Positions 3,058 to 52,912 of a stretch of DNA of 64,000 nt are shown here, one piece after another. The position numbers and the translations under genes were made by a program. This DNA is from Escherichia coli (GTDB lineage: Bacteria; Pseudomonadota; Gammaproteobacteria; Enterobacterales; Enterobacteriaceae): NCBI RefSeq assembly GCF_002854065.1, contig NZ_CP024147.1. One strand, 5' to 3'. The notes below the pieces were generated by a model, which did not search any database, was not told the origin of the DNA, and was given only the letters and a program-made list of their open reading frames with translations. Each line of letters starts with the position of its first letter. Positions within the stretch are counted from its first letter, which is position 1.

Positions 3058-3134
3058 TGGTGCATCCGGGAGGATTCGAACCTCCGACCGCTCGGTTCGT
3101 AGCCGAGTACTCTATCCAGCTGAGCTACGGATGC
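3058..3134 (-). tRNA. argQ: tRNA-Arg (anticodon ACG)
   Basis: Reverse complement gives GCATCCGTAGCTCAGCTGGATAGAGTACTCGGCTACGAACCGAGCGGTCGGAGGTTCGAATCCTCCCGGATGCACCA; copy name assigned by order only. Confidence 0.93.
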
Positions 3135-3236
3135 ATCGGGAAAATTTATTTTACTGCTGATATTGATATCGCTACTAAAGCCATATCAAATAAGAAAATC
3201 CATCTTAACCATCATCACTGATGATTACGGAGAATA

Positions 3237-3313
3237 TGGTGCATCCGGGAGGATTCGAACCTCCGACCGCTCGGTTCGTAGCCGAGTACTCTATCCAGCT
3301 GAGCTACGGATGC
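3237..3313 (-). tRNA. argZ: tRNA-Arg (anticodon ACG)
   Basis: Identical 77-nt tRNA-Arg sequence; copy name by order only. Confidence 0.93.
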
Positions 3314-3375
3314 ATCGGGAAATTTATTTTACTGCTGATATTGATACCGCTACTAAAGCCATATCAAGTAAGAGA

Positions 3376-3452
3376 TGGTGCATCCGGGAGGATTCGAACC
3401 TCCGACCGCTCGGTTCGTAGCCGAGTACTCTATCCAGCTGAGCTACGGATGC
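3376..3452 (-). tRNA. argY: tRNA-Arg (anticodon ACG)
   Basis: Identical 77-nt tRNA-Arg sequence; copy name by order only. Confidence 0.93.
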
Positions 3453-3535
3453 ATCGGGAAACTTACTTTACTGCAGATTTTTTGATACCGCTACTAAAGC
3501 CGTATCAAGTAAGAGATGGTGCATCCGGGAGGATT

Positions 3536-3651
3536 ACTCGCCTTGCGGCTCGCCCTTCGGGCCGTTGCTAAAGCAACGTTATCCTCCCTGGTGCCTGCGG
3601 TTAGTACCGCCACCTCTTCCATACCTTCATCGCTGAAGGTTACGGAGAATA
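3536..3651 (-). repeat. Repeat unit 2: truncated tRNA-Arg 3' end (3536-3554, 19 nt) fused to a ~97-bp hairpin-rich module, directly abutting the 3' end of the fourth tRNA-Arg
   Basis: TGGTGCATCCGGGAGGATT then divergence; same CGTTGCTAAAGCAACG / GCCCTTCGGGC module as unit 1. Confidence 0.7.
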
Positions 3652-3728
3652 TGGTGCATCCGGGAGGATTCGAACCTCCGACCGCTCGGTTCGTAGCCGA
3701 GTACTCTATCCAGCTGAGCTACGGATGC
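3652..3728 (-). tRNA. argV: tRNA-Arg (anticodon ACG)
   Basis: Identical 77-nt tRNA-Arg sequence, 3 bp from tRNA-Ser. Confidence 0.93.
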
Positions 3729-3731
3729 AAA

Positions 3732-3824
3732 TGGCGGTGAGGCGGGGATTCGAACCCCGGATGCAGCTTTTGACCGCATACTCCCTTAGCAGGGGAGCGC
3801 CTTCAGCCTCTCGGCCACCTCACC
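3732..3824 (-). tRNA. serV: tRNA-Ser (anticodon GCU)
   Basis: Reverse complement gives GGTGAGGTGGCCGAGAGGCTGAAGGCGCTCCCCTGCTAAGGGAGTATGCGGTCAAAAGCTGCATCCGGGGTTCGAATCCCCGCCTCACCGCCA with long variable arm. Confidence 0.93.
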
Positions 3825-3914: not shown

Positions 3915-4140
3915 ACAATTTTTCCCACACTTTTATCGTTTGCACACTTCACGCTCAATTAGTCTGTAAAAACGTCAAAAAGAGTGTTTTATCAACAGAA
4001 AAAACGGAAGTCTGACAGATAGCAGTAATGTAAAAAAATGGAGACTTAAGTTGAATGAACGGGAGTAAAGCGAAAAGACTATAGAGTGAAGGAGAAATTT
4101 TGAGGGTGCGTCTCACCGATAAAGATGAGACGCGGAAAGA

Positions 4141-4326
4141 TTAGTAACTGGACTGCTGGGATTTTTCAGCCTGGATACGCTGGTAGATCTCTTCACGGTG
4201 AACAGAAACTTCCTTCGGGGCATTTACGCCAATACGTACCTGGTTGCCCTTTACCCCTAAAACTGTCACGGTGACCTCATCCCCAATCATGAGGGTCTCA
4301 CCAACTCGACGAGTCAGAATCAGCAT
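4141..4326 (-). CDS. csrA: Carbon storage regulator CsrA
   Basis: 61-aa [51 protein letters not shown]. Confidence 0.98.
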
Positions 4327-4560
4327 TCTTTGCTCCTTGAAAGATTAAAAGAGTCGGGTCTCTCTGTATCCCGGCATTATCCATCATATAACGCCAAAAA
4401 GTAAGCAATGACAAACACATTACATCTAAGCAGTCATGGCATTACATTCTGTTAAACCTAAGTTTAGCCGATATACACAACTTCAACCTGACTTTATCGT
4501 TGTCGATAGCGTTAATGCGAATGCCGTGAAGCGAGTCCACGGCATTGCCTGACGCTTATA

Positions 4561-24891: not shown

Positions 24892-27782
<2,891 letters not shown>

Positions 27783-27870
27783 GCAACCGTGCCGGATGCG
27801 GCGTGAACGCCTTATCCGGCCTACATAGTTCGTGCGACATGTAGGCCCGATAAGCGCAGCGCATCGGGCA
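27783..27870. repeat. REP/BIME palindromic repeats downstream of ascB
   Basis: gtgccggatgcggcgtgaacgccttatccggcctac and gtaggcccgataagcgcagcgcatcgggca. Confidence 0.85.
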
Positions 27871-27896
27871 ATCTGTGGATTGGCATCAGTCAAAAA

Positions 27897-28314
27897 TCAA
27901 AGAAACCATTCAGGCTTAACGCCAAATCGGGCTGAAAGTGCCTTAATGTGGGATATCGTCAGGGATCGTTGTCCAGACAAGATCTGGCTGACCAGGGATT
28001 TAGAACCGATTTCGTTCTTCAAATCCGCATAGTCAGATTATGTTGATCAATCAGCGTACGAAGTAACGCTACGCCAACCGGCATTGCCGCAACGGCTTTG
28101 TCGAACTCTGCAAACTTTTCGTTGTTGTTTTCATATTCTGCAATGCGGCTCGCCAGAAAGTCGATAAGTGGATTGGTGTCATCTTCTTCAATCAATATTC
28201 GACCAGTTCCAGTGCTTCACGATAATCATCTTCTGAGTCACTGCCTCCCAGAAAGGGGACTGCATTGACCAGTTCTCTTGTTGCTTTAACAGCGCGTGCA
28301 GCATTAGCAGTCAT
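27897..28314 (-). pseudogene. HigA-family (HTH_XRE) antitoxin-like gene disrupted by two 1-bp deletions
   Basis: Three consecutive frames encode MTANAARAVKATRELVNAVPFLGGSDSEDDYREALELVEY / IEEDDTNPLIDFLASRIAEYENNNEKFAEFDKAVAAMPVGVALLRTLIDQHNLTM / DLKNEIGSKSLVSQILSGQRSLTISHIKALSARFGVKPEWFL, together a ~139-aa HigA-like protein. Confidence 0.7.
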
Positions 28315-28549
28315 TCTTTGTTCTCTCTGTAGTATCGTATCAGACGCCCACTTTTCTAAAATGCCAGGTTTGCTCGGCATCATAAGGCATGGTCAGGAGA
28401 GGTTTCAGCGCCCGCTTTTGCGCATATTCGCTGTCACTCATTGGCAGATATTCGGTAAAGCTGGTGGCCTGTGCAGGCAGCACTAAGCTCAATAAAAAAG
28501 CGCACATCCCTGTTCTGATGTTCAATTCCCTGAATTCCCTAATGAAGAA

Positions 28550-29017
28550 TTATTCTTCCACCGCTAACTGCGCGAAGCCGCCGTTCCCTTCCCAGCCTTC
28601 CAGTCGTTGATAAACGGTTTCTACCGCATCTTTAATCGGCTGTGTCATCGGGTAGTAAAAGCCGACGATATCCGGCTGGATGCCGAGGAAAATCACTTCG
28701 CCAATATCTTCTTTCAACTGATCGATAAGGTAGTTCAACGGCATGTTATGGGTAGTCATCATAAACATCTCGGCGATATCATCCGGGTCGATGATGCGGA
28801 TTTCGCCGGGGTTTAGCCCCATATCCGTGGCGTCGACAATCAGCAGTCGTGTCGGGCGCAGTTCACGGATAGCGACGATGTCGTTTTCCGGTGCGCTACC
28901 GCCGTCAATCACCACCCAGTTACCTTTCGGCGCGGCAGCGCACTTTTCCGCCAGCAGCGGGCCTGCGCCATCATCGCCCATCATGCTATTGCCAACACAG
29001 AGTAAAACGTCAGTCAC
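28550..29017 (-). CDS. hycI: Hydrogenase 3 maturation endopeptidase
   Basis: 155-aa [28 protein letters not shown]. Confidence 0.95.
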   Translation of the reverse strand: MTDVLLCVGNSMMGDDGAGPLLAEKCAAAPKGNWVVIDGGSAPENDIVAIRELRPTRLLIVDATDMGLNPGEIRIIDPDDIAEMFMMTTHNMPLNYLIDQLKEDIGEVIFLGIQPDIVGFYYPMTQPIKDAVETVYQRLEGWEGNGGFAQLAVEE

Positions 29018-47869: not shown

Positions 47870-48777
47870 ATGAAAACGGGATCTAGTTTCATGTCGGTAT
47901 CGTTGGCTTAGGGTCAATGGGAATGGGAGCAGCACTGTCATGTGTCCGCGCAGGTCTTTCTACCTGGGGCGCAGACCTGAACAGCAATGCCTGCGCTACG
48001 TTGAAAGAGGCAGGTGCTTGCGGGGTTTCTGATAACGCCGCGACGTTTGCCGAAAAACTGGACGCTCTGCTGGTGCTGGTGGTCAATGCGGCCCAGGTTA
48101 AACAGGTGCTGTTTGGTGAAACAGGCGTTGCACAACATCTGAAACCCGGTACGGCAGTAATGGTTTCTTCCACTATCGCTAGTGCTGATGCGCAAGAAAT
48201 TGCTACCGCTCTGGCTGGATTCGATCTGGAAATGCTGGATGCGCCAGTTTCTGGTGGTGCAGTAAAAGCCGCTAACGGTGAAATGACTGTCATGGCCTCC
48301 GGTAGCGATATTGCCTTTGAACGACTGGCACCCGTGCTGGAAGCCGTTGCCGGAAAAGTTTATCGCATAGGTGCAGAACCGGGACTAGGTTCGACCGTAA
48401 AAATTATTCACCAGTTGTTAGCGGGCGTACATATTGCTGCCGGAGCCGAAGCGATGGCACTTGCAGCCCGTGCGGGGATCCCGCTGGATGTGATGTATGA
48501 CGTCGTGACCAATGCCGCCGGAAATTCCTGGATGTTCGAAAACCGGATGCGTCATGTGGTGGATGGCGATTACACCCCGCATTCAGCCGTCGATATTTTT
48601 GTTAAGGATCTTGGTCTGGTTGCCGATACAGCCAAAGCCCTGCACTTCCCGCTGCCATTGGCCTCAACAGCATTGAATATGTTCACCAGCGCCAGTAACG
48701 CGGGTTACGGGAAAGAAGACGATAGCGCAGTTATCAAGATTTTCTCTGGCATCACTCTACCGGGAGCGAAATCATGA
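47870..48777 (+). pseudogene. ygbJ: 3-hydroxyisobutyrate dehydrogenase-family oxidoreductase with a -1 frameshift near codon 6
   Basis: ATG at 47870 gives MKTGSSFMSVSLA* in one frame; the Rossmann motif VGIVGLGSMGMG is encoded in another frame directly upstream of the track ORF (47917), preceded by in-frame TAG at 47884-47886. Confidence 0.75.
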
Positions 48778-51540: not shown

Positions 51541-52836
51541 ATGTCCACAATTACATTGTTATGCATTGCGTTAACTGGCGTAATCATGCTGTTGCTGCTG
51601 GTCATCAAGGCAAAGGTACAACCATTCGTTGCTCTGCTCCTCGTCAGCCTGTTAGTCGCACTTGCGGCGGGTATACCGGCGGGCGAAGTGGGTAAAGTGA
51701 TGATCGCCGGGATGGGCGGTGTGCTTGGTTCCGTCACTATTATTATTGGTCTGGGCGCTATGCTGGGGCGTATGATCGAACACTCTGGTGGTGCAGAGTC
51801 ACTGGCTAATTATTTCAGTCGCAAGTTAGGTGACAAACGAACTATCGCTGCGCTGACTCTGGCAGCGTTCTTCCTCGGTATTCCCGTCTTCTTTGATGTC
51901 GGCTTTATTATTCTTGCGCCAATCATTTACGGTTTTGCCAAGGTTGCCAAAATATCGCCACTCAAATTTGGCCTGCCTGTCGCTGGGATCATGCTAACTG
52001 TACATGTGGCGGTACCGCCGCATCCAGGCCCTGTCGCCGCAGCAGGGTTACTCCACGCAGACATCGGCTGGCTAACCATCATCGGTATTGCGATTTCTAT
52101 TCCCGTAGGGATTGTTGGCTACTTTGCAGCGAAAATAATCAATAAGCGCCAATATGCGATGTCGGTGGAAGTACTGGAACAGATGCAACTGGCTCCGGCC
52201 AGTGAGGAAGGCGCGACAAAATTAAGCGATAAAATAAATCCACCGGGCGTCGCGCTGGTCACCTCGCTAATTGTTATTCCTATCGCGATTATCATGGCGG
52301 GTACGGTTTCCGCAACACTGATGCCGCCTTCGCATCCCCTGCTTGGTACGCTACAGCTGATCGGCTCACCAATGGTAGCTCTAATGATTGCGCTGGTGCT
52401 GGCATTCTGGTTATTGGCTTTACGTCGCGGCTGGAGCTTACAACACACCAGCGACATTATGGGCTCAGCGCTTCCTACTGCGGCGGTAGTGATTTTGGTT
52501 ACTGGTGCTGGAGGGGTATTTGGCAAAGTGCTGGTGGAATCGGGCGTCGGCAAAGCCCTTGCCAACATGTTACAAATGATTGACCTGCCTCTGTTACCAG
52601 CCGCATTTATTATTTCACTGGCGCTGCGTGCATCGCAGGGGTCAGCAACCGTAGCAATACTGACAACCGGCGGGTTACTCTCAGAAGCGGTGATGGGATT
52701 GAATCCGATTCAGTGCGTATTGGTGACGCTGGCAGCCTGCTTTGGTGGGCTTGGTGCGTCACATATTAATGACTCAGGGTTCTGGATTGTGACCAAATAT
52801 CTGGGATTGTCGGTAGCAGACGGTCTGAAAACCTAG
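51541..52836 (+). CDS. ygbN: GntP-family permease, apparently truncated by an in-frame TAG
   Basis: 431-aa polytopic ORF; the 22 codons after the TAG (TVLTTILGFTGFLITWCVWAVI, ending TGA at 52903-52905) are in frame and hydrophobic. Confidence 0.8.
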   Translation: MSTITLLCIALTGVIMLLLLVIKAKVQPFVALLLVSLLVALAAGIPAGEVGKVMIAGMGGVLGSVTIIIGLGAMLGRMIEHSGGAESLANYFSRKLGDKRTIAALTLAAFFLGIPVFFDVGFIILAPIIYGFAKVAKISPLKFGLPVAGIMLTVHVAVPPHPGPVAAAGLLHADIGWLTIIGIAISIPVGIVGYFAAKIINKRQYAMSVEVLEQMQLAPASEEGATKLSDKINPPGVALVTSLIVIPIAIIMAGTVSATLMPPSHPLLGTLQLIGSPMVALMIALVLAFWLLALRRGWSLQHTSDIMGSALPTAAVVILVTGAGGVFGKVLVESGVGKALANMLQMIDLPLLPAAFIISLALRASQGSATVAILTTGGLLSEAVMGLNPIQCVLVTLAACFGGLGASHINDSGFWIVTKYLGLSVADGLKT

Positions 52837-52912
52837 ACAGTGTTAACGACCATTCTCGGTTTTACCGGATTCTTAATTACCTGGTGCGTATGGGCGGTAA
52901 TTTGACCTTAAT

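Follow-up and report, generated by a model that had tools for sequence, protein, structure and literature searches.

A doubly frameshifted higA-type antitoxin pseudogene as the probable remnant of a toxin-antitoxin unit between hycI and ascB in Escherichia coli

Introduction

What does an antitoxin gene represent when it is spread over three reading frames and stands in the chromosome without a recognizable toxin gene at its side? This question is raised by the interval between hycI and ascB in a 64,000-nucleotide stretch of an Escherichia coli genome (assembly GCF_002854065.1, contig NZ_CP024147.1), which is referred to as the window throughout. A sequence-only reading of this stretch had proposed a HigA-like protein of ~139 aa encoded across three minus-strand frames between the two genes, a C-terminal helix-turn-helix resembling that of E. 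coli HigA, and a decaying toxin-antitoxin locus in which no toxin was evident.

Decay of chromosomal toxin-antitoxin systems in E. coli has been described in terms of conserved positions, deletions and nonsense mutations (PMC7167474), with ccdO157 given as one example (Mine et al. 2009, as cited in PMC7167474), and orphan antitoxins are abundant in E. coli phylogroup B2 (PMC10790755). Searching the literature for the flanking gene names and the RefSeq protein accessions brought up no publication on the copy located between hycI and ascB. Here, we present evidence that the region is, with a probability of about 90%, what is left, in non-functional form, of a unit present at this site in many E. 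coli strains and consisting of a gene for a 253-aa protein followed by a higB-higA pair of the type II toxin-antitoxin class.

Results and discussion

Identity of the broken antitoxin gene

A tblastn search with an intact 139-aa HigA allele against the window returned three pieces, collinear and 100% identical, each in a different frame of the minus strand (Table 1), as had been proposed from the reading frames. Restoring two bases yielded a 139-aa protein that is 100% identical to WP_000126294.1. The repaired protein aligned with E. coli K-12 HigA (PDB 5IFG, chain B) over residues 9-138 with 47% identity and E = 2.5e-35, a match far beyond chance, and the intact allele features an HTH_3 domain (PF01381) at its C-terminus (residues 85-138, E = 7.9e-9). 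Both the anticipated homology to HigA and the likeness of the C-terminal helix-turn-helix were thereby confirmed. In the window, the domain is split by the second frameshift at codon 96 and the reading frame as a whole is interrupted by two premature stops; the first fragment sits inside a 63-aa ORF of the ORF list. RefSeq annotation of sister strains labels the pseudogene as 'helix-turn-helix domain-containing protein, frameshifted'.

Table 1 Features of the hycI-ascB region, in window coordinates
Feature	Position	Strand	Remarks and basis
ascB	26346..27782	+	convergent downstream flanking gene, intact
REP (repetitive extragenic palindrome) pair	27790..27869	-	between higA stop and ascB stop; sequence
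higA-type antitoxin pseudogene	27897..28314	-	418 bp versus 420 bp intact; frame broken twice
Fragment 3	27897..28031	-	HigA residues 96-139 (most of the helix-turn-helix) and native stop; tblastn 28031-27900; ORF 27897..28022
Fragment 2	28019..28195	-	HigA residues 41-95, second frame; ends at premature TGA 28021-28019; tblastn 28195-28031
Frameshift 2	28032	-	one C lost from ACC, CTGACCTATGCG to CTGACTATGCG; alignment with intact alleles
Fragment 1	28192..28314	-	HigA N-terminus, residues 1-40, 40 codons; ATG 28314, premature TGA 28194-28192; tblastn 28314-28195
Frameshift 1	28194..28195	-	one T lost, TTT to TT, GAATATTTGATT to GAATATTGATT; alignment with intact alleles L002, L003 and L004
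Last 33 nt of higB	28311..28343	-	10 codons and TGA overlapping the higA ATG as ATGA; alignment
Junction of the 1,032-bp deletion	28343..28344	-	between 28344 and 28343; alignment; length measured against ETEC1747
55-aa ORF	28340..28507	-	ATG 28507 to stop 28340 (61 aa from TTG 28525); tblastn, alignment
hycI	28550..29017	-	upstream flanking gene, intact

Comparison with the HigB-HigA system of K-12 (YgjN-YgjM; PDB 5IFG, 6KML, 5YCL) revealed the same arrangement of an N-terminal toxin-binding part followed by a C-terminal HTH_3 domain, and an antitoxin of 139 aa versus 138 aa. The partner HigB of the intact alleles (103 aa; PF09907, E = 4.5e-23) is 39% identical to the 104-aa K-12 HigB (5IFG_A, E = 4.5e-22), which belongs to the same Pfam family, and the intact hycI-ascB locus and K-12 HigBA both have the reversed order, in which the toxin gene precedes the antitoxin gene. 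The copy at hycI-ascB is a paralogue of K-12 HigBA located at a chromosomal site other than ygjNM and, unlike K-12 HigBA, it has in the window a deleted toxin and a twice frameshifted antitoxin.

It is extremely unlikely that the gene encoded a generic regulator of the XRE family instead of an antitoxin. RefSeq mostly names the product 'helix-turn-helix domain-containing protein', and its score against TIGR02607 (antidote_HigA) is far below the cut-off (14.4 versus 47.7 bits), which excludes membership of that family; however, TIGR02607 models the unrelated short HigA of the Rts1/Vibrio type, which is alike in name and in its role as a helix-turn-helix antitoxin and differs in architecture and sequence family. 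The full-length similarity to the crystallised K-12 HigA further argues for an antitoxin, as does the pairing with a PF09907 HigB gene, with an overlap of 4 nt, which is seen in 1,092 genomes of E. coli as well as in 11 further genera or species of Enterobacteriaceae.

NCBIfam provided no usable match for HigA or HigB. Using PADLOC, intact HigB matched component PD-Lambda-2_A of the PD-Lambda-2 anti-phage system (E = 1e-15), and HigA, which is only 139 aa long, matched positions 9-115 of the 402 positions of the PD-Lambda-2_B profile (E = 2e-14). Membership of this system was rejected, as the B component is not full-length and the intact loci contain no further component; the likeness is limited to the domain level.

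How the toxin gene and its promoter region were lost

The hycI stop and the higA ATG are separated by 235 bp (28315-28549), and coordinates and ORF list agree with the earlier description of an interval of ~235 bp holding a 55-aa ORF. Using tblastn, only HigB residues 93-103 were recovered, and no HigB of either paralogue type was found across the 64 kb, while an adjacent upstream higB is present at the same site in 1,092 other genomes. The toxin had been called not evident, which is correct in that the window holds no HigB and can now be put more precisely, as the gene was removed by an identified deletion of 1,032 bp. Across its junction, codon 55 of the 253-aa gene runs directly into the final 33 nt of higB, so that a new TGA arises at 28342-28340; in genomes with a deletion of the window type, positions 280-312 of the higB query match accordingly. 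The intact higB likewise overlaps higA by 4 nt (ATGA). The 40-aa N-terminal fragment does retain the ATG and the Shine-Dalgarno-like sequence ascribed to it, the latter being the tail of higB.

The deletion also took a palindrome-bearing region upstream of higB (GTGTTTACA-TAT-TGTGAAC, with 13-nt arms in strain E21), and the higBA promoter palindrome of intact loci, GTGTTTACATATTGTGAAC, was found nowhere in the whole 64-kb window. A consensus promoter and terminator scan of positions 27700-28700 gave nothing above chance, neither a terminator on the minus strand nor a convincing promoter being identified in the interval, and Rfam returned no RNA family in the region.

The 55-aa ORF possesses the signal-peptide-like N-terminus that had been noted for it. 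Its N-terminal residues match the 253-aa gene in tblastn and, given the deletion junction at codon 55, the ORF is more exactly the 5' stump, signal peptide included, of this neighbouring gene for a secreted protein and not a candidate toxin. The full gene encodes about 251-269 aa (L003:287-1048, L004:697-1452, L033:3001-3810) and also directly follows hycI in Salmonella enterica, with 71% amino-acid identity and without higBA. Judged by this conserved gene order, the 253-aa gene is a long-standing neighbour of the hyc operon in conserved synteny and does not belong to a mobile toxin-antitoxin cassette. Its alleles within E. coli diverge to 82% nucleotide identity. The secreted protein features two conserved D-x-D-x-N-G-x-x-D-like motifs and has no match in Pfam, NCBIfam or PADLOC. 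Its AlphaFold model has a mean pLDDT of 58, and a PDB fold search with this model returned only non-significant, integrin-propeller-like matches (E of at least 0.08).

In three public gene calls of ~200 aa (P0042, P0044 and P0045), the N-terminal stump of the 253-aa protein is fused to the HTH_3 antitoxin, and one of these fused calls bears the name 'HTH-type transcriptional regulator ygjM'. Such calls may result from faulty annotation or else reflect genuine in-frame fusions that some strains carry at the deletion junction.

The locus across E. coli strains

A survey of 5,426 complete E. coli genomes revealed higA at the hycI-ascB site in 2,508 of them, always as a single chromosomal copy. 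Full-length higB was present in 1,092 genomes, the body of the 253-aa gene in 1,461 and the exact window-type deletion junction in 834. An intact higBA pair, for which a comparison of the interval across strains had been suggested, is common, and its occurrence at the same site supports the earlier proposal of a decaying toxin-antitoxin locus. By subtraction of 1,092 from 2,508, an orphan higA is present in ~1,416 genomes, which equals the number of genomes covering at least 80% of the window's arrangement.

Strains represent several states of the site. ETEC1747 and CFT073 carry hycI, the gene for a signal-peptide protein of 251-253 aa, higB (103 aa) and higA (139 aa), followed by ascB, and E21 and E2348/69 carry higB-higA without the 253-aa gene. 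MB06172 retains a 251-aa gene and higA, with higB deleted, while 536, APEC O1, the ST131 strain ZH193 and the window share a stump of 55-61 aa in front of higA, and K-12 holds a short spacer only. Loss of higB with retention of a whole higA has thus come about through at least two distinct deletions, one of the window type and one of the MB06172 type. The MB06172-type deletion was counted only by subtraction, at about 582 genomes, and the query for its junction was not diagnostic because intact loci joined across the gap. The spacer of K-12 MG1655 (L005 455-612) is a composite scar consisting of the start of the 253-aa gene, its 3' end and the spacer following higA, from which it follows that the filled state is ancestral to the K-12 state. 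The REP pair downstream of higA occurs in the K-12 spacer too; the REP segment matched a median of 37 sites in each genome.

The fixed chromosomal position, the deleted toxin, the antitoxin kept as an orphan and the occasional further inactivation resemble documented cases of toxin-antitoxin decay, from which the present locus differs in that it belongs to the HigBA family and that the same intact higA persists after no fewer than two distinct deletions of higB.

Position, reality and timing of the two frameshifts

Each frame switch had been attributed to the loss of a single T. Alignment with intact alleles confirmed this for the first one (28195-28194), whereas the second results from a lost C at 28032, ~12 nt away from the position of ~28020 that had been assigned to it. 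Frameshift 1 is also present in 100416 (Gambia) and CUWW06 (Thailand), two independent complete assemblies that are both marked 'frameshifted' in RefSeq, and this shared lesion is a real mutation inherited within the lineage. Its presence in two independent assemblies means that the gene is broken irrespective of the status of frameshift 2.

Frameshift 2 was absent from all 2,508 complete E. coli genomes bearing higA, and an exact 36-mer across it had no match in the species-representative genome collection. Compared with 100416, it is the sole indel in 43.6 kb. The window and CUWW06 are collinear over all 64 kb with 99.98% identity, differing by 11 SNPs and two one-base deletions, both of them in the window, namely frameshift 2 and a G lost in ltnD (47884). 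One window-specific SNP, at 28339, falls in the higB remnant, and mutS is intact in the window.

The reading in which both frameshifts are assembly or sequencing errors, the strain carrying an intact orphan higA like those of 536, APEC O1 and ST131, was considered highly unlikely. It could draw on the uniqueness of frameshift 2, on the second unique one-base deletion in ltnD, on the high share of one-base deletions, 2 among roughly 7 changes, on the branch leading to the window alone and on the length of higA, which was exactly 420 bp in 59 of 60 genes sampled from evenly spaced genomes among the 2,508, the remaining one having a 25-bp deletion. However, an error would not account for a frameshift 1 that is identical in genomes sequenced independently from Gambia and Thailand, neither window-specific deletion lies inside a homopolymer longer than 2, and no other indel relative to CUWW06 occurs in the 64 kb. 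Moreover, both window-specific deletions hit units already impaired in the sister strains, higA through frameshift 1 and the ltn/otn operon through a stop in ygbN, as predicted by neutral decay and not by random error. The placement of the window-specific changes fits relaxed constraint better than random error.

A more restricted version, in which frameshift 2 alone is an artefact and the gene is dead through frameshift 1, is unlikely as well, albeit less so. No other assembly shows frameshift 2, and a sporadic assembly error is conceivable at its site as well as at 47884 in ltnD, but a second lesion would be expected in an already dead gene, and the sole indel of 43.6 kb falls in a pseudogene of 418 bp, about 1% of that length. 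Functionally, such an artefact would not matter, since the protein already ends after residue 40 owing to frameshift 1.

In comparison with other higA alleles, the repaired window allele shows 8-15 synonymous and 0-1 non-synonymous changes, the non-synonymous ones all lying on other lineages. As the differences of the window allele itself are synonymous, its inactivation is recent relative to the long period of constraint.

Proposed course of decay

One deletion of 1,032 bp removed the toxin together with the higBA promoter region and left a promoterless orphan higA behind the 55-aa stump ORF. This orphan state is common (834 genomes), and higA is intact and conserved in it. In the narrow lineage of the window, a T was later lost at codon 41, a lesion shared with 100416 and CUWW06, and in the window alone also a C at codon 96. 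Under the preferred reading of a non-functional remnant, higA, lacking both a toxin to counteract and its own operator, may have become dispensable in this lineage and be decaying neutrally, and the locus would now be inert, giving rise at most to a 40-aa N-terminal peptide via read-through from hyc/hycI or the stump ORF. A functional DNA-binding antitoxin is not possible because both frameshifts cut off the helix-turn-helix domain. We infer the lack of function of the locus from its sequence alone.

A function of the fragments themselves is barely conceivable, be it that the 40-aa peptide or the 58-aa middle fragment acts as a mini-antitoxin against another HigB or that the full protein arises by ribosomal frameshifting. 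The ATG and the upstream Shine-Dalgarno-like sequence are kept, and HigB homologues with 60-80% identity, which occur on more than 500 enterobacterial plasmids, represent possible targets. Yet the native promoter and operator are deleted, the helix-turn-helix is split, and the restriction to three assemblies looks like recent decay and not like a selected variant. Programmed frameshifting was rejected, as two separate frame corrections would be required and no slippery or stimulatory signal is evident.

Overall, the higA of the window is an ordinary pseudogene of a known family that follows a known pattern of toxin-antitoxin decay, and the genes and the pseudogene are routinely annotated. It is of little significance alone, the NCBI pipeline already flagging it as frameshifted in sister strains, and serves as a base-level example of stepwise decay at one site, from the full unit via the deleted toxin and the frameshifted antitoxin to the near-complete scar of K-12.

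Constraint on the orphan antitoxin in other strains

Across 13 higA alleles, paired and orphan, 29 nucleotide sites but only 4 amino-acid sites are polymorphic, and the orphan alleles of APEC O1, ZH193, a poultry isolate and MB06172 encode exactly the protein of higB-linked alleles. This conservation, together with the constant length of the sampled genes, leads to the conclusion that orphan higA is normally maintained and that its inactivation in the window is rare and recent. The polymorphism pattern indicates purifying selection on orphan higA in other strains, and its loss in the window's lineage may carry a cost.

The toxin was lost by at least two independent deletions, and the protein was kept identical, with divergence at synonymous sites only, in about one quarter of E. 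coli, among them ST131, APEC O1 and 536, which raises the question why ~1,400 of the 5,426 genomes retain an intact, conserved orphan higA. A toxin-independent role of orphan HigA is a tentative answer, either as anti-addiction immunity against plasmid-borne HigB homologues or in transcriptional regulation; both types of role have been proposed for orphan antitoxins and are unproven (PMC7354431). If such a role existed, the window's lineage would represent a natural knockout of this function.

Homologues outside the hycI-ascB site

Beyond E. coli, higB-higA pairs with 74-82% identity were found in unrelated contexts in Leclercia, Kluyvera, Mangrovibacter, Citrobacter, Yokenella and others, and some of these loci have no higB or a truncated one. 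The higA match at 4001-4417 is without higB in Kluyvera georgiana (L012) and accompanied by only the last 25 higB codons in Serratia sp. DD3 (L013), so toxin loss with retention of the antitoxin recurs outside E. coli. A full unit labelled as E. albertii was not used to argue for a deep ancestry of higBA because it is 98-99% identical to E. coli. Two contigs of metagenome-assembled genomes, labelled Collinsella sp. (L007) and Citrobacter sp. (L018), contain the E. coli hycI-higA-ascB region with 99% identity and are probably E. coli contamination or mis-binned.

Further observations in the window

In ltnD (ygbJ; ORF region 47870-48777, plus strand), the one-base deletion at 47884 affects codon 6, converts GATCTGAG into GATCTAG and brings a stop into frame after 13 codons; an ORF resumes only from 47917 onwards and lacks the start of the N-terminal nucleotide-binding motif. 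In a comparison with 4,587 E. coli genomes that contain the region, this deletion was seen only in the window. Within the same ltn/otn operon, the gene for the GntP-family transporter ygbN (51541-52905, plus strand) contains an internal stop 22 codons before its end, which is common to CUWW06, where RefSeq marks a pseudogene. The ltn/otn operon thus appears to be in decay in the window's lineage.

In strain 100416, a close relative, ygbA and mutS are separated by an island of ~15 kb (window ~43560; L029 5875-20800) that contains a type I restriction-modification system, a pair of an AAA ATPase and a UvrD-like helicase, and IS fragments, and an IS1 is inserted in its pphB (window ~46765; L029:1759-2456); the window and CUWW06 have neither the island nor the IS1. 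Finally, the sRNA MicA (84 bits) is located at positions 76-147 of the window, and positions 3061-3824 hold four identical-scoring tRNAs and one longer tRNA, annotated in sister strains as four Arg tRNAs and one Ser tRNA, both features being ordinary K-12-like content.
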